Source: a virus (lineage: Duplodnaviria > Caudoviricetes). Taken from it: DNA of 64,000 nt. The notes under the pieces are model-generated. The model ran no database searches and was not told where the DNA came from. It saw only the letters and a program-made list of their open reading frames with translations. Positions 27,249-44,649 of this stretch are shown one piece after another. Location of the stretch: the IMG/VR virus record IMGVR_UViG_3300021514_000002, positions 192,001-256,000 of that record. One strand, written 5' to 3'. A program made the translations under genes and the position numbers. Every line of letters begins with the position of its first letter. The first letter of the stretch is position 1.

Positions 27249-28904
27249 TTATCCCCATTTAGCACATTTACTATGTGCGCAGTTACAAGTGCAAGTGCAA
27301 GTGCAAGTGCATGTACACCCACAAGTATTATTAGAACTTGGTATATATTTTGTAGTAGCACCAAATACTACTTCTAGTGAATTACCTACGAGGTTACTAG
27401 CAGAATCATAATAAGCTGCCCCATTATATGTAACTGTAGCGCCACCCGTAACTACAAAATTAAGTTTATTTGCACCATCATCATATGTTACATCAATTCC
27501 AGATTCGAAGTTTCCACTTATCATTGCACCGACAATATCCTGCAAACTTTCGGTTTTTTGTGTTTCAAAATTTGCGGCGGTTAATACTTCCGCACCACTA
27601 ATGGTAATATTAGTACCATCTAATGTGGTTGGTCCAATCCACGAAATCGTTGCACCTATCGTACCTGATATTGCATGATATATCTCAATACCCGTAGTAT
27701 GTATTCGCAGCATCACAGCTGGCTCGCCGGATTTTGCGTATGTGTGTACAGCACCTGTCCATGTAGCATTCCATAAATGTTCTACCCTACCTGAGCCATC
27801 GTCTTGGACAATTGAGTATTTGCCATTGGTTGATGTTTGTTCTAACAAGGTCGCAACAGCAGAAAATGCTAAGGTGCCTAACATAGTATCGCCAGTATCG
27901 TTTACATATCGTCCATCTGCATAATCTCGGTTTATTCCATCTGTGCCAACAACAGGAGTTCCAACATTATTAATTTGATTCGTTGCCATATCCAAGTCGC
28001 CTGCCATGGCATCGCCTGTTACATTAACAAATCGGTTGTCAGCGTAACCAAGATTTACAGCATCGTCTGCCGAATCAGGATCAGCAAGATTTTCAATTTT
28101 ATGCGAGTCCATGTTGAGAGCGCCTTGCATAGCTTTACTACCGTCACGCGGTAAGTAATTTGCGGAAACGCGTGTCCAATCTGGGGAACCACCTGTAAAA
28201 ATTCGTAAATTTCTTTCATATTCATCACTGCTAATGGCGTATGTTGAAGTTTCCCACCATAGATCGCTTATCGATGGTGCTGTTGGTGCTGTATCAGAAA
28301 AAGTAATACCACCAACACGTTTCCATATTCCTGTGAGTGGTGAACCTAAAAATTCATAAACGTAGATTTGTCCCCGTGTTTGGTTATACCACATCTGTCC
28401 TTCTATTGGGGTAGTTGCGCTAAATTGGCCTGCTTTATTTGGAACGCCAAGTTCGCCCGCACTAGCTGAAATTGCACCTGATGTAAGGTTCGGTGCAGTA
28501 AGAGGACTACCCGTAGATGCTAATGTAATTGTTGTTTCTGTAGAACCATTATATACTGCTGACTGAACGACATACGTTCCATCGTCTGTAGGTGACCCAG
28601 TAGAACCCCAAATATTAAAACTCCTTGTTGGGGGGAATGCTCGTTCAACGTCACCCACAATAGTAAAAGTTGTCCCTGTTGGAACACTAGTTATAATATG
28701 AATGTCTTCTTCCGATGAAAAATTTTCCAACATATGGATGAAGTTTTCGAGGATAGTTTCGCCCCATAGCGAATGCCCCATGCCAATAAGGTCTATGTCT
28801 GTTTGTCTGTTTCCACCGCGTGGACCAGCAACAGCATTGGGTAAAACGTTGAGAGTACTTTTTGTTGGATCAACAAAATTTATAGTGTAATTCTTAGCGG
28901 CCAT
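27249..28904 (-). CDS. Virion structural / fibre protein with C-terminal poly-(Cys-Xaa) tail
   Basis: Same N-terminal family motif (LIGMGHSLWGE..MLENFS, PIEGQMWYN), fibre repeats (DAVNLGYAD, GINRDYAD), ends TCGCTCTCTCTCTCNCAHSKCAKWG. Confidence 0.85.
   Translation of the reverse strand: MAAKNYTINFVDPTKSTLNVLPNAVAGPRGGNRQTDIDLIGMGHSLWGETILENFIHMLENFSSEEDIHIITSVPTGTTFTIVGDVERAFPPTRSFNIWGSTGSPTDDGTYVVQSAVYNGSTETTITLASTGSPLTAPNLTSGAISASAGELGVPNKAGQFSATTPIEGQMWYNQTRGQIYVYEFLGSPLTGIWKRVGGITFSDTAPTAPSISDLWWETSTYAISSDEYERNLRIFTGGSPDWTRVSANYLPRDGSKAMQGALNMDSHKIENLADPDSADDAVNLGYADNRFVNVTGDAMAGDLDMATNQINNVGTPVVGTDGINRDYADGRYVNDTGDTMLGTLAFSAVATLLEQTSTNGKYSIVQDDGSGRVEHLWNATWTGAVHTYAKSGEPAVMLRIHTTGIEIYHAISGTIGATISWIGPTTLDGTNITISGAEVLTAANFETQKTESLQDIVGAMISGNFESGIDVTYDDGANKLNFVVTGGATVTYNGAAYYDSASNLVGNSLEVVFGATTKYIPSSNNTCGCTCTCTCTCTCNCAHSKCAKWG
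27285..27326 (-). repeat. Hexamer repeat (ACTTGC/ACTTGT) encoding Thr-Cys
   Basis: Plus strand ACAAGT GCAAGT GCAAGT GCAAGT GCATGT ACACCC ACAAGT. Confidence 0.9.
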
Positions 28905-30773: not shown

Positions 30774-31101
30774 TTGCTGCGTTTATCCGACGGTTACAGA
30801 ATTTGCATTCCACGTAACCATCTTTTTGAACCAAATGCTCATAAGGATGGATACAGTCTTTAACCATTACTTGTCGCAATGCTTGTATTTCATCAAGCAT
30901 TGGTTGTTTTTCATCCTTAATAATATTAAGGATTTTTTCTTCAATCGGTCGAAGCTTTTCAATTAACTTTTCCATATTAGCAAGTTTACGCTTCCACGCA
31001 GTTTTTTCACTACGATCTGCATGGTTCGATATGCTCTCGAATAAATTACGTTCTACCGCCTGTTCTGGTGTTTCATTTTCTGGTTTTTTTCTTCTAGCCA
31101 T
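30766..31101 (-). CDS. Hypothetical protein with C-terminal zinc-binding motif
   Basis: Coiled coil followed by CIHP..CKFC. Confidence 0.65.
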   Translation of the reverse strand: MARRKKPENETPEQAVERNLFESISNHADRSEKTAWKRKLANMEKLIEKLRPIEEKILNIIKDEKQPMLDEIQALRQVMVKDCIHPYEHLVQKDGYVECKFCNRRINAANG

Positions 31102-31298
31102 TATTTTATTAACTCCTCAGAAACGACATCTTTTTCATGACAAACCATATTCAATTTTATATTAATTTCGGTTGGTAACCCAAATAACGTGATTGATGAA
31201 GCTACTGTTTCAAATTCTGTTATTGTTCCTTCAAGATTGTGTTGTTCTAAAAATACAATCAAATCTTCAGGTGTTGTTGGCATTATCATGCTTTTCAT
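31101..31298 (-). CDS. Hypothetical protein
   Basis: Overlaps both neighbours. Confidence 0.55.
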   Translation of the reverse strand: MKSMIMPTTPEDLIVFLEQHNLEGTITEFETVASSITLFGLPTEINIKLNMVCHEKDVVSEELIK

Positions 31299-32602
31299 TT
31301 TACTAACTCCATTGCATCATCAAATTTGTTCACTCTAAGTTCTTTGATGAATTGTTTTCCAATATCAGAATCTTTATCAACTATCATACTTGGTTTAGTT
31401 TCAAGTTGTGCTTTTAGAACCTCATATTGAAGTTTCGTTCTTTCCATGTAAGATTCTGGAACCCTCATGGCATCAGAAACTTTGCGTTGGAAATATTCAA
31501 GATCATCTAACATACCAAGACCTTGACCACATGGTAATGTTTCAACAAGTGAACCCCGCCCTTCTGGATTTGATGAAGAAATGAAATCTTCTGTTATCCA
31601 TTTACCATCACGGACAACTTTTGAGGTCATTTGTGGTATATACGGTGCATAAAAATATCCAGTATCTAATTGTTTCGGTTCTGTTTCAAAATCAAACACG
31701 AGTTGTTTTTCACAATTTTCTTCGTCTATATTAAGCAACTCTACCCCTAATGACTTTATGTGAATTGGTATGTGAATGAATTCTGCGGCATCATTTGGTT
31801 TAATAGTAACATCAACGTGCAATTTATTGTTATCAATACGACTAGGCGTATTATTGGTTTCATCACAAACTACCGAATAGTCAACGATGCTACTGTTTGA
31901 AAGAATATTAGTAATATCACATCTCACCCGCTCGTGGGTTAATGAATCATTTGGTTTGTCTATGTGGACTGCCAGTCCCGCTTGAATGTTTCTTTTAAGA
32001 TCTATAAGCTGTCTGCGTACGTTTACCTTATCGAAAGATGAAGTGTCAGATAGTGCTTCACTTTTTATAGTTGTTAAAGTTAAAATCTCTGCTTTCAATT
32101 CAACAATCTCATCTTTAAGTTTACAAATGGTATCCTTGTCGTCCCTCATGTCGACTAAATCATCATAACTATACCCAAACGCCGTGTTATAATGCGTATG
32201 GTCAAAAGACCCATAAGGTATATTCATTAATGTATTTGTTGTAATATTATTAATTTGCGTTTGCACATCATCTGTGATTTTTGCTGTATGCATTATTGGA
32301 ACGTGAACGTCTTCGATATGTTCGGAAGATGGTTTTGGCATACAACCACGTGATGATACACCGAGACTAATCGGTTTATTGAGCAATTTCATTGCTTCGT
32401 GTATTGTTTCTATATTTACTTCTGGTGCTGGGGTATTAGAATAAGTGCAGGGCGAAGCTGGATAATCAAACATATTTAAAAATGAAAAATTATCATCTAT
32501 AGCCGATACACATGGACTTTTTAGTTTTGGTTTGGTTTCTTTTTTGTTAATCTCTGGTAAGAACTTATCGAACTCGTCTAAGAAATTTTGATTTTTTATC
32601 AT
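31295..32602 (-). CDS. Mosaic protein with tail-sheath, major-capsid and portal-like fragments
   Basis: SSFDKVNVRR..VVCDETNNTPSRIDNN..IKP (gp18 C-terminus), DTGYFYAPYIP (gp23 motif), EDF..GRGSLVETLPCGQGLGMLDDLEYFQRK..MRVPESY (gp20 segment). Confidence 0.75.
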   Translation of the reverse strand: MIKNQNFLDEFDKFLPEINKKETKPKLKSPCVSAIDDNFSFLNMFDYPASPCTYSNTPAPEVNIETIHEAMKLLNKPISLGVSSRGCMPKPSSEHIEDVHVPIMHTAKITDDVQTQINNITTNTLMNIPYGSFDHTHYNTAFGYSYDDLVDMRDDKDTICKLKDEIVELKAEILTLTTIKSEALSDTSSFDKVNVRRQLIDLKRNIQAGLAVHIDKPNDSLTHERVRCDITNILSNSSIVDYSVVCDETNNTPSRIDNNKLHVDVTIKPNDAAEFIHIPIHIKSLGVELLNIDEENCEKQLVFDFETEPKQLDTGYFYAPYIPQMTSKVVRDGKWITEDFISSSNPEGRGSLVETLPCGQGLGMLDDLEYFQRKVSDAMRVPESYMERTKLQYEVLKAQLETKPSMIVDKDSDIGKQFIKELRVNKFDDAMELVK

Positions 32603-32612
32603 TATTGTTCTC

Positions 32613-33545
32613 TTATACTTGTGATAGCCGTATGAACATCGCGGCGGCGTTTATTTCCTGGTCTGCAATGACGGCGTTTTTGTAAAGATGATCGGTAAGT
32701 ATAACAATACCAGCTTCCCAATTATCTTCGTTGCTATATTTTTTTGATTTGTGTAGATTTTCATATAGGAATCTATATAGATCTTCCCATTCTTCTGTTG
32801 CAACATTCGCACACGTGAGTGATCTGGCACCTTTCCAATTATCTGCGCTAATCATATCCAATAACTTAAATTTATAATCACCTGATTCACTTTCCATGAC
32901 AAGGGATTGAAGACTACCATCAATTGAATTCTGTTGTAATAGATTTATAATTTTTCGGATATCGGGATATCCGACTGCAATATACTTGTCTAATAAATCA
33001 ATACCGAATTTTATTTTTTCAGATAACAATATTGTTGCACAATATTCTGCGATCTCATCGCGATCTGAGGCTTTAAATCTAAATTGCTGACTGCGGGATT
33101 TAATTGCTGGCATTATTTTATTTTCATAATTACAAGTAAGTATGAAACGTGCTGGACAATCTGGATCTTCCATGTACTTTCGAAGAACAGCTTGAGCGTT
33201 TTGTGTAAGGTAGTCCGCTTCTTCTAATTGTATAACCTTAAATTCGCCCATTGCGAAAGTGGTTATAAAACTTTTGATTCTATCGCGCATGAAGTCAACA
33301 GAATTATCGTCACTTGCATTAATAAGAAGAACGTCTGTTGGATCAACATCGAGTTCCTTTATTAAGATTTGAGCTATTGTAGTTTTACCACTGCCCTGCA
33401 CGCCAGATAATAGTAAATGTGGAATAGTTTTATTTTCGACCATTTGTTGAAATGCTTTCTTATGGGATTCGTCATGAAAAATATACTCGTTGAGAGTAGC
33501 AGGTCTAAATTTTTCAACCCATAATACGTGTTTATTGGATTTCAT
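32613..33545 (-). CDS. Clamp loader large subunit (gp44/RFC-like AAA+)
   Basis: LWVEKFRP, HLLLSGVQGSGKTT, INASDD, ARFILTCNY..IMPAIKSR. Confidence 0.93.
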   Translation of the reverse strand: MKSNKHVLWVEKFRPATLNEYIFHDESHKKAFQQMVENKTIPHLLLSGVQGSGKTTIAQILIKELDVDPTDVLLINASDDNSVDFMRDRIKSFITTFAMGEFKVIQLEEADYLTQNAQAVLRKYMEDPDCPARFILTCNYENKIMPAIKSRSQQFRFKASDRDEIAEYCATILLSEKIKFGIDLLDKYIAVGYPDIRKIINLLQQNSIDGSLQSLVMESESGDYKFKLLDMISADNWKGARSLTCANVATEEWEDLYRFLYENLHKSKKYSNEDNWEAGIVILTDHLYKNAVIADQEINAAAMFIRLSQV

Positions 33546-33604
33546 TATAATTATTATTCTCCGTATTATGGATGAATAATACTATAATGGGTAACCGTTG
33601 TCAA

Positions 33605-34652: not shown

Positions 34653-34982
34653 TTACACCAAATAATCTTCGTCGATTGCCATCAACTTAGAATCATCTGT
34701 GCCCCAATAAGATATACCATCAACTTCTAACGATTCTGTCCATTGGAGTGCTTCTATTAAAACTCTTGAGCCAACTTTAATATCTGACATTACTTCATTG
34801 CCAATTGATACAACTATTCCCCATCTTGGACCTTTTGCGCTTTCATCATAACTAGACATCTCAAATCCCCAGTCAGTTTTTTCTTCAAATTGTGAACGAC
34901 TTTGGCCGAAATCTGATTTTCTTACAATACTATCTTCAAATTGGAAGATGATACGATTGCGAATAGCTCTTAATGTTGACAT
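34653..34982 (-). CDS. GroES-like co-chaperonin
   Basis: LRAIRNRIIF..RWGIVVSIGNEV..IKVGSRVL pattern of Cpn10. Confidence 0.75.
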   Translation of the reverse strand: MSTLRAIRNRIIFQFEDSIVRKSDFGQSRSQFEEKTDWGFEMSSYDESAKGPRWGIVVSIGNEVMSDIKVGSRVLIEALQWTESLEVDGISYWGTDDSKLMAIDEDYLV

Positions 34983-35326: not shown

Positions 35327-35884
35327 TTAAGTTCGTAAAAAATCTTTTATATCTAGGTCATAGTAGAAACTGTCAACATCATGAACACCAATGACGTATA
35401 ACACGTACGAAGATACACTACTTCCACGTCCTACTCCCCAAACTATATTTTTTTCTACTAACGTATTTATAATATATATCACGGCTTTAATAGTGTCAAA
35501 AAGTCCCATTTTGTCGTAAAGTACTAATTCTTCGGCACATCGTTGCTCACGAAGCGTAATATCATCCTCTGAACCCGATTGTTCTAATAATTTATCTGCA
35601 ACATACGTGACAACATTTAATGTTTTGTATTTTTCAGGCATATTCCAATCAAATGATAATTCACTGACGTTGGTTTTAACTGAAATCTTTTCCGACGCTG
35701 GAACCAACTTATTATATTGTACAATATCGTCTGTTAAACTCTCAACGAATAAATGTTCAATACTGTTACCATTCGTAATATTATTGATTATATTATTAGC
35801 ATCAACGGTAGAATCTCCATCAAACCATAACGTGCGATTCTTTAATTTGATGCTATTATTCGAATGGGCTTGAAACATTTCCAT
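35327..35884 (-). CDS. DnaE-like N-proximal piece (GRGS motif)
   Basis: R..EEL..IVWGVGRGSSVSSYVLYVIGVHDVDS..YDLDIKDFL (cf. [32 protein letters not shown]). Confidence 0.8.
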   Translation of the reverse strand: MEMFQAHSNNSIKLKNRTLWFDGDSTVDANNIINNITNGNSIEHLFVESLTDDIVQYNKLVPASEKISVKTNVSELSFDWNMPEKYKTLNVVTYVADKLLEQSGSEDDITLREQRCAEELVLYDKMGLFDTIKAVIYIINTLVEKNIVWGVGRGSSVSSYVLYVIGVHDVDSFYYDLDIKDFLRT

Positions 35885-36251
35885 CCGACGTATCTATATT
35901 TGGTGTTACTGCCTTACCGCCATTTGCCGCAGGATCTAATAGTTGACGAGCAGCCGGTGTCATTTCCACGTTGGTTGGGATAAAACCACCAACAGGTGGT
36001 GGTGGCTGAAACCCCTGCGGAGGTGCGGGTGCAGGCGTTGGCGTATTATATACGGGTGGCATTGGTTGTGTTGTTTGTACTTTTTCGATTACAATTTTCT
36101 CTTCTATAATTCCATCAATTTTATCACGGATTAATTTCCATTGATCAAAATTAGGACTCCATTCATCGGATTGTAGTTCTTCAACGCCCTGTAACCACGC
36201 TCTAAATTCTTTTAAACTTTGTTTAATTTTTCTTCTTCTTGTCGCTGCCAT
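35856..36251 (-). CDS. Hypothetical protein
   Basis: EFRAWLQGVEE..WSP..QWK.I..KI followed by a Pro-rich tail. Confidence 0.65.
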   Translation of the reverse strand: MAATRRRKIKQSLKEFRAWLQGVEELQSDEWSPNFDQWKLIRDKIDGIIEEKIVIEKVQTTQPMPPVYNTPTPAPAPPQGFQPPPPVGGFIPTNVEMTPAARQLLDPAANGGKAVTPNIDTSDGNVSSPFE

Positions 36252-40392: not shown

Positions 40393-40989
40393 TTACTTTC
40401 GTTGTTTTCCCTTATGCGCTTTCGTCATCATTTTAACCATTTTATTTAGGCGCTTACGAATATCGTCTGCTTGTAACCATAAATCTTCACCCTTTAAAAT
40501 ATCTACAAGCTCAGCTTCTGTTATGAATGGGATATAATAATCGCGCGTTAAGGTATTGAACCATTTAATAGTTGCTTCAAGTTGCTGTACTTGCTCATTT
40601 CCCTTGCCATATATTCCACCACTAAAATTATGAATCATCATAGTGCTATGGTCATGTATAAGAAATTCATCAGCCGCTAAAAATATTAGTGAACCAAGCG
40701 AATAGGCTTCACCTTCTAAGCTACAGACAATGTGCGCTTCTGAGTATTTCATAGCATTGATAAGTTGGATACCTGTGGATAAATCGCCACCTTGTGTATT
40801 TAGATGAATAATTACGGTTTCATCTGAACTGGCAAGGCGAATTTTGTGTATCATGTCAACATACAAGGCGGGAATATCAATATAACCACTTAAATAATAA
40901 TGCTGAATCTTTGAAACTAACGTCTGTTCATAATATTCATATGCTTTTATTTCACTTTCTACTTCTTCTTCCGCGATTTCTGCTTTCAT
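40393..40989 (-). CDS. ClpP-like protease
   Basis: IHLNTQGGD, GEAYSLGSLIFLAAD (catalytic Ser), MMIHN (His); exact TATAAATA at 41023. Confidence 0.85.
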   Translation of the reverse strand: MKAEIAEEEVESEIKAYEYYEQTLVSKIQHYYLSGYIDIPALYVDMIHKIRLASSDETVIIHLNTQGGDLSTGIQLINAMKYSEAHIVCSLEGEAYSLGSLIFLAADEFLIHDHSTMMIHNFSGGIYGKGNEQVQQLEATIKWFNTLTRDYYIPFITEAELVDILKGEDLWLQADDIRKRLNKMVKMMTKAHKGKQRK

Positions 40990-42195: not shown

Positions 42196-42717
42196 TTATT
42201 TATCATCCTTCGTATTATCTTTTGCCCAATCTAAATTAAGGTCTTCGGCATATTCTTCCACGATTTCAATAGGTTCTTCAAATTTAGGAAGATCTTTACA
42301 TTGTAAACTACCAACATCATAAGAAAGTGTTACATGTGGCTTATAGTCAGGAAAATCGTATGTTGCCTCGTGCTCTTTCATTAATTCCTTATGTCTTTTT
42401 GATAAAGCAGTGCAAGTATACTTCAAAACCAAACACATTGCAACCTTTCCATCATCATCAGGTTGCGACGGCCATTTTTCGAAGCCCGATGGTGTACCTT
42501 CTAATATATCATCATACTTACCTTTGGCCTTATAGTCTGGTAAATATTTTCTACTGTATAATAAAGTGGTATGCATTTTTTCGGGTTCTATGGGATTTGG
42601 TATATCATTATCTTTAATAAACTTTTTAATCGCATTGATAGTTTTGTTACTTAGTCTTACTCCAGCATAAGTTCCTTTTTGTATTTTTTCTTCAATAATC
42701 TCGGTCAATTTCATCAC
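42196..42717 (-). CDS. 2H phosphoesterase, Acb1 / T4 gp57B-like
   Basis: Two HxT motifs (MHTTLLYS, PHVTLSY), GTYAG N-terminal motif; leader MKLTEIIEE. Confidence 0.8.
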   Translation of the reverse strand: MMKLTEIIEEKIQKGTYAGVRLSNKTINAIKKFIKDNDIPNPIEPEKMHTTLLYSRKYLPDYKAKGKYDDILEGTPSGFEKWPSQPDDDGKVAMCLVLKYTCTALSKRHKELMKEHEATYDFPDYKPHVTLSYDVGSLQCKDLPKFEEPIEIVEEYAEDLNLDWAKDNTKDDK

Positions 42718-43528: not shown

Positions 43529-44045
43529 ATTTTTGTGCCCGCATTGCTTCTTCTATTCTCTTGTGATTTTGGAAATACTTTTCTGATGTTAAATCCACTA
43601 TAATTCTAGCATACCTCATGGCACGCGTATTCACACGATCTGCTGTTGTAAAGTAAAAATTAACTGCGGGGATGGCTGTCGGTTTTTTAAAGAATGCAAC
43701 CAGTTTACCTATAATGGACGTAGGGGAAGGGGGTAATGGAAACTCTGCATTAAATGTCAACGTGGATGGGGAATATTGGCAATAAGCGCCACTATCCAGA
43801 ATCCAATGGTGGAACGTATGATAAATGTCACGTACATGGTTTTGATTTTCCCCAATAAAAAGATATTTATTGCCACCGTGGTGTGGTTGTAAATAGGAAA
43901 GCAACGTCACCATTTTTTCTATGGTTTTACCACAACCACGCCCGTATAACTTTTCGTCACGGACAAGCTTAACGCGTGCTGGATCTACTTCGTATAGAGG
44001 TATCATCCTGTAATCGTGTAGCGTAGCACTGTAACGTTGTAACAA
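43521..44045 (-). CDS. Hypothetical protein
   Basis: Contains a YGRGCGKT P-loop-like segment; overlaps neighbours. Confidence 0.55.
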   Translation of the reverse strand: MLQRYSATLHDYRMIPLYEVDPARVKLVRDEKLYGRGCGKTIEKMVTLLSYLQPHHGGNKYLFIGENQNHVRDIYHTFHHWILDSGAYCQYSPSTLTFNAEFPLPPSPTSIIGKLVAFFKKPTAIPAVNFYFTTADRVNTRAMRYARIIVDLTSEKYFQNHKRIEEAMRAQKYE

Positions 44046-44323
44046 TTACGTTGACGATAATATACGTCAAGATGTGTTATTTTTTTGTTAATATCAGATT
44101 GTTTATTATTTCTAGTATCACAAATTATATTCCATTGCTCTATTTTATTTTCATTAACCATATATTCCATGTGGTCATCAAGAATTCCCAATACAACAAT
44201 GCGGTGCGGATCACTATCCCATATGACATTAAAATCTACAATCAACACTTCAATAAAACTGGATATGTTATTACATAATTGTTTGCTATTGACATGTTGT
44301 GTTTTTAAAATAAAATCGGTCAT
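44003..44323 (-). CDS. Small protein resembling the tail-sheath C-terminal domain (paralog A)
   Basis: IEQWNIICDTRNN..LDVYYRQRNCYNVTVLRYTI. Confidence 0.55.
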   Translation of the reverse strand: MTDFILKTQHVNSKQLCNNISSFIEVLIVDFNVIWDSDPHRIVVLGILDDHMEYMVNENKIEQWNIICDTRNNKQSDINKKITHLDVYYRQRNCYNVTVLRYTITG

Positions 44324-44328
44324 TGCAA

Positions 44329-44649
44329 TTACTTCTGTATAGTATAAGATAAGTGCGTTGTATTAAAACAATTTTTATGTTTATAGTAAATGTCAATAAT
44401 GAATTTATTTTTTTTAAGTTCTGAAAATTTATTATTTCTCGAATCGGCAACTACATTTAATTGTTCAAGTTTATTACTTTCCGCTTCGTCTTCCAACATC
44501 ATTTCAATTAAATTAATCGCAGAGTTCATATCTATCGATAAATCAAATAACATTACCACCGCACGCATATGTTCATCAATGCTTTCAAAAATTGATTTAC
44601 TATGTACGTTTTTAGTTGTTGATGTAATTTTCACGTTATAAGGTTCCAT
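44329..44649 (-). CDS. Small protein resembling the tail-sheath C-terminal domain (paralog B)
   Basis: LEQLNVVADSRNN..IDIYYKHKNCFNTTHLSYTI; TATAAATA at 44664. Confidence 0.55.
   Translation of the reverse strand: MEPYNVKITSTTKNVHSKSIFESIDEHMRAVVMLFDLSIDMNSAINLIEMMLEDEAESNKLEQLNVVADSRNNKFSELKKNKFIIDIYYKHKNCFNTTHLSYTIQK

Follow-up and report, generated by a model that had tools for sequence, protein, structure and literature searches.

Organization of the P0001 locus

Gene P0001 lies on the minus strand of the analysed window, a stretch of 64,000 nucleotides of tailed-phage DNA to which all coordinates given below refer. The following features were identified at this locus:

33576..33604, minus strand: sigma70-like promoter match (TTGACA-17-TATTAT, 11/12), upstream of the clamp-loader start; a consensus match only
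32613..33545, minus strand: RFC/gp44-like clamp-loader gene, recognized by Pfam; the same neighbour is found in the related loci L003, L004 and L013
31295..32602, minus strand: whole P0001 gene, encoding a 'virion-piece' protein of 435 aa plus stop; about 19 homologues; omega 0.37 against the closest homologue
31101..31298, minus strand: 65-aa open reading frame (ORF), an optional companion gene whose ATG overlaps the P0001 stop codon (ATGA)

The ORF and its translation are as described in an earlier note on this DNA, which proposed a single protein stitched from tail-sheath, major-capsid and portal fragments; the three ranges quoted there correspond exactly to aa 188-280, 313-325 and 337-386. 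The clamp-loader gene is located upstream of P0001, with a gap of 10 nt, and the two genes are probably co-transcribed. No terminator-like site was seen on the same strand between the sigma70-like promoter and P0001. The late promoter TATAAATA was not enriched within the window and was absent upstream of P0001. As judged from the consensus promoter match only, P0001 may be expressed early.

The position of the gene directly after the clamp loader is retained in L003, L004 and L013, while the upstream gene of L012 could be seen only as a cut piece of 49 residues and that of the homologue P0027 is located on the other strand. Companion genes also occur in relatives (a 64-aa gene after P0027, and 77- and 68-aa genes after P0003); the 65-aa companion of P0001 had no family match in Pfam, NCBIfam or PADLOC. 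The view that P0001 sits among replication genes holds for the adjoining clamp loader, but genes resembling those for tail collar and fibres start approximately 1.7 kb downstream, and the surroundings are not purely replicative. The same gene block contains an Acb1 anti-CBASS gene, and a phage ClpP gene is found near P0001. XacN1, a cultured relative, carries no P0001-type gene between the same two flanking genes, and P0001 is therefore an accessory gene.

Segments of virion proteins within P0001

Within the protein, the following parts were distinguished:

32555..32590, minus strand: conserved N-terminal motif QNFLDEFDKFLP (family consensus LDE[FL][DE]K[FM]L), defined from family alignments; predicted helix
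32345..32395, minus strand: head-protease-like motif, aa 70-86 (AMKLLNKPISLGVSSRG), matching the phage's own gp21-like protease
32231..32320, minus strand: possible decayed capsid piece 1, aa 95-124, aligning with aa 88-126 of the homologue P0008
32048..32137, minus strand: predicted long helix or coiled coil, aa 156-185 (AF2, pLDDT 57-77), with ..KLE.E..ELKA.. conserved in the family
31736..32047, minus strand: complete tail-sheath C-terminal ('handshake') domain, aa 186-289, from Pfam, PHROG, the phage's own sheath and the predicted fold
31613..31720, minus strand: capsid (gp23-type) core motif, aa 295-330, including DTGYFYAPYIPQM, from the match to the own major capsid protein (MCP) and Gp23 matches in relatives
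31328..31597, minus strand: portal piece, aa 336-425, comprising the second half of the clip, the channel loop, stem helix alpha7, the tunnel-loop region and the start of alpha8
31298..31327, minus strand: C-terminal tail KFDDAMELVK, a short linear motif near-invariant in the family

The sheath piece was recognized by the Pfam model Phage_sheath_1C (PF17482; E 1.6e-9, 38.2 bits, cut-off 26.9), with aa 186-282 covering the whole 104-position domain, as well as by the PHROG sheath profile (E 2e-22). Amino acids 188-289 share 41% identity (E 8e-23) with the last 106 residues (aa 513-618) of the sheath protein of the same phage, and the piece corresponds to residues 538-652 of T4 gp18. Its predicted fold (pLDDT 81) has T4 gp18 as the best PDB match (TMq 0.65), and Foldseek also placed the module near T4 gp25 (5iw9, TMq 0.53-0.55). 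The N-terminal and middle domains of sheath proteins (PF04984 and related) gave no match in P0001 outside aa 186-289, and a real sheath protein (610 aa) is encoded elsewhere in the genome. A search of the ESM Atlas for look-alikes of P0001 yielded nothing above chance except sheath proteins. The PND..T, C and NN positions of the piece are invariant in the family, and the sheath profile built from the family scored the own sheath at 119 bits, close to the 124 bits of the top-scoring sheath in a search of 1.8 billion proteins. Branch lengths of the sheath modules exceed those of real sheaths by a factor of 10-40, and in the homologue P0002 the module has been cleanly deleted.

The portal piece matched Pfam Portal_T4 (PF07230; E 6.4e-12, 45.4 bits, cut-off 22.9) over aa 336-390, equivalent to profile positions 254-308 of 433, and the PHROG portal profile (E 3e-11). 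It corresponds to residues 324-380 of T4 gp20, with domain limits taken from PMC4493910. Identity to the own portal protein amounts to 43% over aa 336-432 (E 4e-18), and the piece and a cyanophage portal stay colinear right up to the last residue, with 34% identity over about 110 aa. By pairwise alignment it spans approximately 100 aa, and a full portal fold (wing, stem, clip, crown) is absent; the genome encodes the real portal (542-564 aa) at another place. The piece was detected in 14 of the 19 family members, and family alignments revealed that the parent-like residues GRGS.VETLP.GQ.LG.L.DLEYF.RKV have been kept in it.

The capsid piece, taken by itself, gave only weak matches to Pfam Gp23 (PF07068; aa 309-332, E 0.011, 15.6 bits, under the cut-off of 24.4) and to the PHROG capsid profile (E 0.09). 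A higher similarity was found to the own MCP, with 42% identity over aa 295-330 (E 2e-5; DTGYFYAPYIPQM versus DTGYFYCPYIPLM); the piece corresponds to about residues 445-460 of T4 gp23, and it also resembles a capsid paralogue encoded by the genome. Since Gp23 was matched independently by 5/19 family members, this recurrence supports the weak match in P0001. P0001 is not a gp23 protein, because the similarity stays below the curated cut-off and covers a motif of 24-36 residues, as compared with the HK97-type fold required. Omega is 0.60 for this piece, and the motif is decaying in P0002. Other family members carry a second capsid segment, represented in P0008 by aa 88-126 (capsid profile phrog_138, E 9e-4). 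Through this homologue, aa 95-124 of P0001 can tentatively be regarded as a decayed second capsid piece, one that is undetectable in P0001 itself.

Amino acids 70-86 are identical at 10 of 17 positions to aa 118-134 of the own gp21-like protease, including an exact stretch of seven residues (LGVSSRG), which aligns with GV(S/A)SRG of T4 gp21 and is kept in most of the long family members. This segment is probably a copy of the head-protease serine motif, albeit one that is only suggestive by its own statistics (E 0.08 in a set of 7 proteins; profile E 1.2). P0001 does not belong to Peptidase S77 (gp21), as it gave no Pfam match and has in common with these enzymes only the 17-residue, LGVSSRG-containing stretch. 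The N-terminal motif is present in most family members and was not found elsewhere in the genome. The full-length AF2 model of P0001 was poor (mean pLDDT 47.6) and of use only within the sheath module and for some helices; disorder is predicted for the capsid piece as well as for the beginning of the portal piece.

The proposal of gp18, gp23 and gp20 segments in a single protein was thus borne out, by agreement of Pfam, PHROG, own-sheath and fold data for the sheath, by significant Pfam, PHROG and own-portal matches for the portal, and for the capsid motif, weak alone, by the MCP match and its recurrence in relatives. In contrast, the N-terminal half, described in the earlier note as unrelated, is probably not so, given the protease-like LGVSSRG and the possible capsid piece 1. 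The genuine gp18, gp20, gp23 and gp21 proteins are the source families of the pieces. P0001 lacks the N-terminal domains of the sheath, the wing, crown and first half of the clip of the portal, the capsid fold and the rest of the protease; because these parent domains are lacking, P0001, as read from its sequence, cannot perform the functions of the parent proteins.

A C-terminal tail shared with other proteins of the phage

Ten ORFs of the genome (P0001 and nine others) end in the tail motif [FYW][DE].AM.., compared with 0.04 expected. The nine others are mostly small and otherwise unrelated; they include a capsid paralogue and three small genes that lie in tandem at the border of the head block, and the same tandem array is also found in a relative. 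No conservation at the DNA level was found around the stop codons of these ORFs, and a DNA-level cause of the motif was rejected on this basis. The tail, found on these other phage proteins too, may dock P0001 to a common hub, possibly the prohead. The sliding clamp was dismissed as the hub (PF09116 and PF02916 had no match in the genome), and the 'FDDAM' of RsoM2USA_204 proved to be an incidental motif inside a ligase-like protein. A text search of the literature for the tail motif returned only noise.

The P0001 family and the origin of its pieces

The approximately 19 homologues come from independent metagenomes and form a modular family of 'virion-piece' proteins specific to XacN1-like jumbo phages. 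They range from 115 to 530 aa, with overall identities of 27-65%. The N-terminal motif and the tail ("FDDAMELVK") are near-constant, while the pieces other than the portal piece have been gained, lost or reordered. P0001 itself shows the full set of family features, i.e. LDE[FL][DE]K[FM]L, the portal clip-to-stem piece, the [FY]DDAME[LV] tail and synteny with the clamp loader. The three-part architecture recurs in relatives, in modular form and with a varying set of pieces, in independent JGI, ENA and Logan assemblies, which rules out the misassembly that had been considered as an objection to the gene. Megablast gave no match to close relatives in public phage records, and no record covers >=80% of the protein; in IMG/VR, two more loci of the family were found, together with one ordinary sheath-portal block.

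A comparison with the closest homologue revealed a dN of 0.236 for P0001 versus 0.02-0.04 for three of the four flanking genes, so that its amino acid sequence changes about 8 times faster than those of the neighbours. Omega is nevertheless 0.37 overall and below 1 in every module, which indicates purifying selection, although some single pieces decay or drop out in relatives.

Each of the pieces is 41-43% identical to the own sheath, capsid and portal proteins, and on sequence grounds the pieces derive from the phage's own lineage. An excess of identical codons was found between the portal piece and the own portal (30/41 versus 18.5 expected, P ~1.5e-4), but no such excess in the sheath, capsid or protease pieces relative to their own parents. 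Moreover, synonymous divergence between the portal piece and the own portal (pS 0.40) is only slightly lower than among family members (0.48-0.53). With divergence this high and a codon excess confined to the portal piece, the suggested recent copying or gene conversion from the phage's own gp18, gp23 and gp20 genes was rejected, and we conclude that the pieces are most probably old copies, with at most weak conversion. The parent-family residues kept in the portal and sheath pieces suggest that parent-like contacts or folding have been retained. In L015, and likewise in 8 of the top 120 portal homologues, an intein interrupts the portal precisely within the copied segment; the L013 clamp loader that adjoins the family gene also contains an intein, and an HNH gene lies after the capsid gene.

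Possible function of P0001

The explanation that we favour, and hold tentatively, is that P0001 may be an interface mimic of unassembled virion proteins, to which its pieces would bind as pseudo-subunits. Mimicry of interfaces is suggested because, in the parent proteins, the copied parts of portal and sheath mediate contacts between subunits: the clip of the T4 portal forms the only main-chain inter-subunit sheet, and the tunnel-loop region contacts neighbouring subunits (PMC4493910). P0001 is an accessory, probably early-expressed protein, predicted to be largely disordered, in which the conserved N-terminal helix and the C-terminal, putative docking tail flank diverged copies of the most conserved segments of virion proteins of the phage's own lineage. 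Optional within the family are the complete sheath 'handshake' domain, capsid core motifs (one or two) and the probable serine motif of the head protease. These pieces would bind monomers of the portal, sheath, capsid protein and protease, and once bound would cap surfaces that are used in assembly and are reportedly read on monomers by bacterial sensors; Avs sensors have been reported to bind conserved cores and oligomerization interfaces of monomers (10.64898/2026.01.04.697583). The presumed pay-off would be shielding from immunity or control of assembly. The mode of evolution is of the conflict type, with the gene absent from XacN1, a dN well above that of most flanking genes and pieces that come and go between relatives; the sigma70-like promoter and the Acb1 gene in the same block would fit such a role. 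It is also conceivable, if somewhat doubtful, that a multi-interface mimic of this kind constitutes a new class of counter-measure, capping the phage's own monomers or occupying receptors, with the set of pieces tuned to the sensor repertoire of the host and an address tag, common to about nine other proteins, that could load the protein into the capsid so that it is delivered along with the DNA. We found no description of such a virion-piece protein in the literature, and nothing like the P0001 family appears to have been described.

As regards size and predicted disorder, the protease motif (17 residues) and the capsid motif (13-35 residues) are very short for interface mimicry, and the disorder predicted in the capsid piece and at the beginning of the portal piece makes native-like docking uncertain. 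The patchy distribution of the gene is hard to reconcile with an essential chaperone-like role, and a cap binding to the phage's own proteins could harm its own assembly.

The earlier note proposed a decoy for host sensors, an assembly modulator or a superinfection-exclusion factor. The first of these, a related but unlikely possibility, is that P0001 acts as a direct decoy, the pieces occupying portal- or capsid-sensing host receptors without activating them, before the late proteins appear. An accessory, fast-evolving, modular and apparently early gene would suit this role, and portal and capsid protein are documented targets of sensors that focus on the most conserved regions (10.64898/2026.01.04.697583); Acb1 lies nearby, and the anti-Avs proteins of the EVADES preprint work differently, so that the role is not known to be filled. 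However, Avs sensors are reported to recognize large folded core surfaces of monomers by shape complementarity, and since conserved fragments can suffice to trigger them, a mimic risks activating the sensor (10.64898/2026.01.04.697583). The short pieces are moreover predicted to be disordered, no sensor of the sheath or the head protease was found in the literature consulted, and P0001 has no link to PADLOC or other families. Rather improbable is a dominant-negative poison of competitors, in which the pieces would co-assemble with the portal, sheath or capsid subunits of co-infecting T4-like phages or satellites and block completion of the ring or sheath, while divergence or a timed removal of the inhibitor would protect the phage's own proteins. 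The copied segments are indeed those most conserved across T4-like phages (as illustrated by the 34% identity to the cyanophage portal), a free handshake domain could cap a growing sheath (the initiator gp25 uses the same fold), expression looks early, and, with a ClpP gene near, the C-terminal tail could act as a degron. Yet self-poisoning would be hard to avoid, given that the pieces resemble the proteins of this phage (41-43% identity) as closely as they resemble those of others, and the superinfection-exclusion proteins known from T4-like phages work at the membrane.

A comparably low probability is assigned to targeting to the prohead, in which case the protein would be packaged, and perhaps ejected, with the tail as a capsid-targeting peptide and the head pieces placing it at the portal or core; this reading can coexist with the others. 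It draws on the sharing of the tail with nine other, mostly small proteins, among them the capsid paralogue and the three tandem genes at the head block, on the tandem array in a relative, and on the fact that three of the four parents (portal, capsid protein and protease) meet in the prohead. The location in a clamp-loader operon and a sheath domain that has no place in the prohead speak against it, and the tail might just as well serve as a degron or as a dock for another hub. It is still less probable that P0001 is evolutionary debris, only its termini, joined by a spacer of arbitrary sequence, having a function and its middle being captured own DNA, left by break repair at homing-endonuclease or intein sites, which lie in the most conserved motifs, and now decaying. 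The intein and HNH elements at the copied portal segment, the L013 clamp loader and the capsid gene would fit such an origin, as would the different stages of decay (the capsid piece of P0027 near-matches the real capsid, that of P0001 is unrecognizable, and P0002 has a decaying capsid motif and has lost the sheath module), but parent residues are kept across members that are 27-65% identical, omega is below 1 in every module, and 14/19 members retain the portal piece. Such residues would not be kept in neutral filler. Finally, an equivalent of gp62, or an assembly artefact, is effectively refuted already. In T4, gene 62 directly follows gene 44, and P0001 occupies the corresponding position after the gp44-like gene; however, gp62 equivalence was rejected because XacN1 has no gene between the same flanking genes, and the spread in size of the family (115 to 530 aa) and the lack of a detectable gp45-type clamp also count against it.

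Comparison with known systems

The sheath module of P0001, close in fold to both gp18 and gp25, recalls T4 gp25/TssE, a small handshake-fold protein that engages the sheath without being a sheath protein. In contrast, gp25 is a baseplate protein (PF04965) for which the phage has its own gp25-like gene elsewhere, whereas the P0001 module is truly paralogous to the C-terminal domain of the sheath (PF17482), is joined to portal, capsid and protease pieces and is encoded in a clamp-loader operon. The internal head proteins of T4 (IPI-III and Alt), like the tail-bearing proteins described above, are unrelated proteins with a common terminal peptide, and IPI* is an injected anti-defence protein. The T4 signal, however, is N-terminal and cleaved by gp21, while the P0001 tail is C-terminal and has no consistent cleavage site; packaging of P0001 would be by analogy.

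Anti-defence mimics and sponges act by competitive binding and typically evolve fast and have a patchy distribution. The P0001 family resembles Ocr, DSAD1 (directed against DSR2), the Tad/Acb2 sponges and the anti-Avs proteins ORF55/ORF83 in being early (as judged from the promoter match), accessory and fast-evolving, but these competitive binders have no sequence relation to P0001, which is built from the phage's own virion proteins. Among the known anti-defence mimics and sponges, none assembled from parts of a phage's own virion proteins was found, and P0001 had no anti-defence match in PADLOC or NCBIfam models. Of the two anti-Avs proteins discussed in the EVADES preprint, one is a DNA ligase and the other a nucleotide-binding protein with a Rossmann fold (DprA/Smf-like). 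Virion-like parts are also used by P4 Sid, SaPI CpmA/B and the PICI capsid and terminase homologues, which interfere with the assembly of another element; these hijackers, encoded by satellites and not by the phage, consist of whole domains or scaffolds, in contrast to a string of short segments taken from four proteins.

Significance

Bacterial immune receptors are now known to sense the majority of the conserved virion proteins of tailed phages. A P0001-type gene, as a fast-evolving and apparently early copy of conserved segments of four such proteins, thought of here as interface elements, is a direct candidate for an answer of phages that goes beyond point mutation. If it does not serve as an answer to immunity, it may represent a new way to control or sabotage virion assembly. 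In either case, the family shows that parts of a phage's own essential structural genes can be copied, put to new use and rearranged in modular fashion, and the common C-terminal tail points to an unrecognized addressing system in this clade of jumbo phages.

Composition of the chimeric protein

Analysis of the 435-aa ORF P0001 revealed that it contains pieces of virion proteins, which matched the corresponding proteins of the same phage as follows.

Window 31295-32602, minus strand: P0001 ORF, virion-piece protein
P0001 188-289: final 106 residues of the phage's own sheath, 41% identity, E 8e-23
P0001 295-330: own major capsid protein (MCP) 422-457, DTGYFYAPYIPQM vs DTGYFYCPYIPLM, 42% identity, E 2e-5
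P0001 336-432: own portal 332-415, 43% identity, E 4e-18

An earlier note had quoted three peptide stretches from this ORF, with correct coordinates, and assigned them to sheath, capsid and portal. Profiles confirmed the sheath and portal assignments outright: Pfam Phage_sheath_1C matched aa 186-282 over its entire 104-position domain (E 1.6e-9, 38.2 bits, cut-off 26.9) and Portal_T4 matched aa 336-390 through profile positions 254-308 of 433 (E 6.4e-12, 45.4 bits, cut-off 22.9). The capsid match (Gp23, aa 309-332, E 0.011) was under its cut-off and is weak when taken alone, but it gains weight because 5 of the 19 family members matched Gp23 independently. With PHROGs, the E values were 2e-22 (sheath), 3e-11 (portal) and 0.09 (major head protein). 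The sheath module, modelled with an alignment, gave a confident structure (pLDDT 81, pTM 0.70), whose top PDB matches were T4 gp18 (TMq 0.62-0.65) and then T4 gp25, the initiator of sheath polymerisation.

The N-terminal half, previously described as unrelated, probably also contains virion-derived pieces. Residues 70-86 (AMKLLNKPISLGVSSRG) matched residues 118-134 of the phage's own head protease (AKELANSGVALGVSSRG), with the exact heptapeptide LGVSSRG in common. The statistics of this match are weak (E 0.08 in a 7-protein set, profile E 1.2); the motif is kept in alignments of most long family members. It aligns with GVASRG of the T4 gp21 structure 5JBL, which we take as the motif around the catalytic serine, that residue having been mutated in the crystallised protein; the gp21 nucleophile is Ser140. 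Residues 95-124 align with a stretch of the homologue P0008 that matches the capsid profile (E 9e-4), and another homologue, P0027, carries this segment (HGLDLESEMTQALSAEIVQEID) nearly letter for letter as in the own-genome MCP. This second capsid piece is listed as tentative, since it can no longer be detected in P0001 itself.

In T4 coordinates, the pieces correspond to gp18 538-652 of 659 (sheath), gp20 about 324 to about 410 (portal), and gp23 about 445-460 and about 289-317 (capsid). The portal piece takes in the latter half of the clip and the channel loop, together with stem helix alpha7, the tunnel loop and the beginning of alpha8 (PMC4493910). In the T4 portal ring, the clip is the only place where subunits pair through a main-chain beta-sheet; the tunnel loops touch neighbouring subunits and aid dodecamer assembly, and DNA in the channel is contacted through the three loops (PMC4493910).

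A modular protein family

We checked whether the architecture recurs in relatives. A word-indexed search identified five homologues (32-46% identity) with the same sheath-plus-portal Pfam architecture, originating from JGI, ENA and Logan assemblies, and an exhaustive profile search of 1.8 billion representatives extended the family to approximately 19 members of 115-530 aa, whose content is modular. This recurrence excludes misassembly of P0001.

In most members, an N-terminal LDE[FL][DE]K[FM]L motif and a C-terminal tail, [KA]FDDAME[LV][VI]K, are near-constant in the alignments. The portal piece was detected in 14/19 members and the sheath domain in 8/19, with a clean deletion of the latter in P0002, the closest homologue; in P0129 a sheath fragment is placed after the portal piece. 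The capsid motifs are variable (either of the two segments, or none), and the protease motif is present in some members and absent from others. A beta-rich block (..FWD.ISY.AP.N..) occurs in the family and is absent from P0001. The minimal members (137-150 aa) consist only of the N-terminal motif, the portal piece and the tail, to which P0027 adds a capsid piece.

The literature searches turned up no account of such a protein, P0001 had no match in NCBIfam or PADLOC, and none of the public or annotated phage records covers it. Its parts fall in known families, yet P0001 does not qualify as a member of any of them; the architecture is therefore rated as new in kind.

Genomic setting

The window belongs to a single 363,531-bp phage contig, whose ends (1-252 and 362555-363529) encode an identical 42-aa stretch. 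This terminal overlap indicates a circularly permuted or terminally redundant, and probably complete, genome. Among cultured phages, those nearest by capsid protein are Xanthomonas phage XacN1 (61% identity), Xoo-sp13, Stenotrophomonas phages CM1 and RAS14, and Ralstonia phage RsoM2USA.

The chimera gene lies 10 nt after an RFC/gp44-like clamp loader. The same order, clamp loader and then family gene, holds in L003, L004 and L013, the other three contigs whose upstream gene is complete, with a gap of 11 nt in L003 and L004; in L012 the upstream gene is cut (49 residues visible), and the called upstream gene of P0027 is on the opposite strand. XacN1 carries a 109-aa gene directly after the clamp loader, taken by size and order as the counterpart of the 111-aa gene of the window, with no chimera between. 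The chimera is thus an inserted or accessory gene, and its equivalence to gp62 was rejected.

Further upstream are genes for Cpn10-like, DnaE-fragment, UvsW, ClpP, Acb1 (anti-CBASS) and DHFR products. The following were observed in the same leftward block as P0001.

Window 34653-34982, minus strand: weak Cpn10/gp31-like co-chaperonin, under its cut-off
Window 35327-35884, minus strand: DNA polymerase III alpha fragment, 185 aa, separate ORF
Window 40393-40989, minus strand: ClpP-family protease
Window 42196-42717, minus strand: Acb1 anti-CBASS homologue, E 3e-37

Downstream of P0001 are a 65-aa ORF whose start overlaps the end of P0001, three conserved genes of 111, 159 and 228 aa, and then tail-collar and fibre-like genes. 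One fibre-like protein (551 aa, window 27249-28904, minus strand) has a C-terminal run of alternating Cys-Thr (..NNTCGCTCTCTCTCTCNCAHSKC..), which implies that its gene carries a short tandem repeat in the DNA at the 3' end.

A sigma70-like promoter match (11/12 positions) immediately precedes the clamp-loader start, and the stretch from this match to the chimera has no terminator-like site on that strand. No T4-type late promoter motif is present upstream of the chimera gene. These sequence features suggest early or middle expression.

Evolution of the chimera gene

Comparison of P0001 with P0002 gave dN 0.236, dS 0.637 and an overall omega of 0.37. The corresponding values were dN 0.02-0.04 and omega 0.06-0.15 for three flanking genes, and dN 0.22 and omega 0.18 for the collar gene. 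Within the chimera, omega was 0.60 for the capsid piece and 0.25-0.43 for the remaining segments.

Recent copying from the phage's own parent genes, a comparison proposed in the earlier note, is not supported by the synonymous distances. Portal orthologues of the clade are 75-96% identical across the source region, whereas the piece is 43% identical to the phage's own portal, and an excess of codon sharing with the parents was observed for the portal piece only (30/41 vs 18.5 expected). When sheath C-domains were placed in a tree, the terminal branches of real sheaths were short (0.08 for the own sheath), in contrast to those of the chimera modules (0.8-3.2), which lie across a branch with 93/89 support and show no settled grouping among themselves; residues invariant in real sheaths are still kept in them. 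The family sheath profile scored the own sheath at 119 bits and the best sheath of the global library at 124 bits, which suggests that this phage lineage's own genes were the source of the pieces. Overall, we conclude that the gene holds self-copies that are old, evolve fast and are maintained by selection, and that modules continue to be gained and lost.

A C-terminal tail shared with other proteins

In the phage's own genome, 10 ORFs end in the pattern [FYW][DE].AM plus 2-6 residues, compared with 0.04 in shuffled controls. All but the first of these sites lie outside the window.

Window 31298-31327, minus strand: tail of P0001
Own genome 323016-324188, minus strand: capsid paralogue, 390 aa, ends ...DAFESAMKILD
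Own genome 295879-296866, plus strand: three tandem small ORFs, edge of the head-morphogenesis block
Own genome 65702-65905, minus strand: scattered small ORF
Own genome 83542-83871, minus strand: scattered small ORF
Own genome 124674-124892, minus strand: scattered small ORF
Own genome 135930-136214, minus strand: scattered small ORF
Own genome 147458-147685, minus strand: scattered small ORF

The five scattered ORFs have unrelated N-terminal parts (one is a DUF6794 protein), and the DNA around the stop codons of the tail ORFs is not conserved. In a relative with a portal 85% identical over the compared region, four tandem small genes upstream of the portal all end with the tail, at a position corresponding to the own-genome array. 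The 77-aa gene after the homologue P0003 also ends with this motif; the sites recorded on other contigs are L019:568-1524 and L003:11548-11781. Judged from these sequences, the tail is a short linear motif conserved at the protein level, and its carriers would accordingly dock to a common partner; it is probably a shared docking, targeting or degradation tag. One candidate for the partner is the prohead, since the capsid-targeting sequence of T4 offers an analogy and is likewise a short peptide shared between proteins. It could also be a protease or unfoldase, with the tail acting as a degron, or something else.

In XacN1 (36047-36205), the annotation places two adjacent suppressor tRNAs beside a spot where an FDDAM-coding pattern lies on the strand opposite to the annotated ORF088, whose strand call may be wrong.

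Inteins, paralogues and mini sheath domains

In T4-type portals, inteins interrupt the sequence between ..TLEAG and SNLGELEDLEYF.., a site that falls exactly within the segment copied into the chimera. They were found in this region in 8 of the 120 closest portal homologues (P0189, P0193, P0197, P0231, P0239, P0261, P0263, P0282); the split portal of an unrelated T4-like contig is also listed here, together with other observations.

L015:4052-6208: intein-split portal, unrelated T4-like contig
L013:840-2879: clamp loader beside a family gene, with an intein-like insertion
L001:13765-14601 (own genome 309765-310601): HNH endonuclease-like gene directly after the major capsid gene
Own genome 24228-25139, minus strand: third capsid-like paralogue, 304 aa, outside the window and far from the head block
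Window 44003-44323 and 44329-44649, both minus strand: two tandem paralogous 106-aa ORFs, 34% identical mutually
Own genome 286676-286879, minus strand: separate gp25-like gene

The L013 insertion is called intein-like on the basis of length (679 vs 310 aa) and its location inside the P-loop motif. The third capsid-like paralogue, additional to the 390-aa one at 323-324 kb, is 31% identical to the MCP across 262 aa. The tandem 106-aa ORFs are weakly similar to the sheath C-domain (family HMM E 5e-6 and 2e-3; phrog_23 E 5.7e-5 and 0.09) and look like stand-alone mini handshake domains.

Possible role of the chimera

Any explanation has to account for the fact that the pieces come from four virion proteins, in each case from the segments conserved most, that those from the portal and sheath are demonstrably subunit-interface elements, that parent-like residues are conserved within the pieces, and that the remainder of P0001 is largely disordered. 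The gene, moreover, is accessory, fast-evolving, modular and apparently early, and its product carries the shared address tail. As proposed in the earlier note, the protein may be a direct decoy for host sensors; this simple form of the idea is weakened, since a 2026 preprint (10.64898/2026.01.04.697583) reports that a conserved fragment can itself suffice to trigger a sensor. The chimera may also be a poison for competing T4-like phages or a packaged head protein, or it may represent largely neutral filler captured at homing sites, which would agree with the position of the portal inteins of the clade.

The reading that we favour, albeit tentatively, is interface mimicry, in which the pieces, as pseudo-subunits, would bind to monomers before assembly, or to other readers of the same surfaces. 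According to the same preprint (10.64898/2026.01.04.697583), monomeric phage proteins are bound by Avs-type sensors at their conserved cores and oligomerisation interfaces, in a way that clashes with the assembled forms. If sensors read those surfaces, capping them would control assembly and hide the recognised patterns at once.
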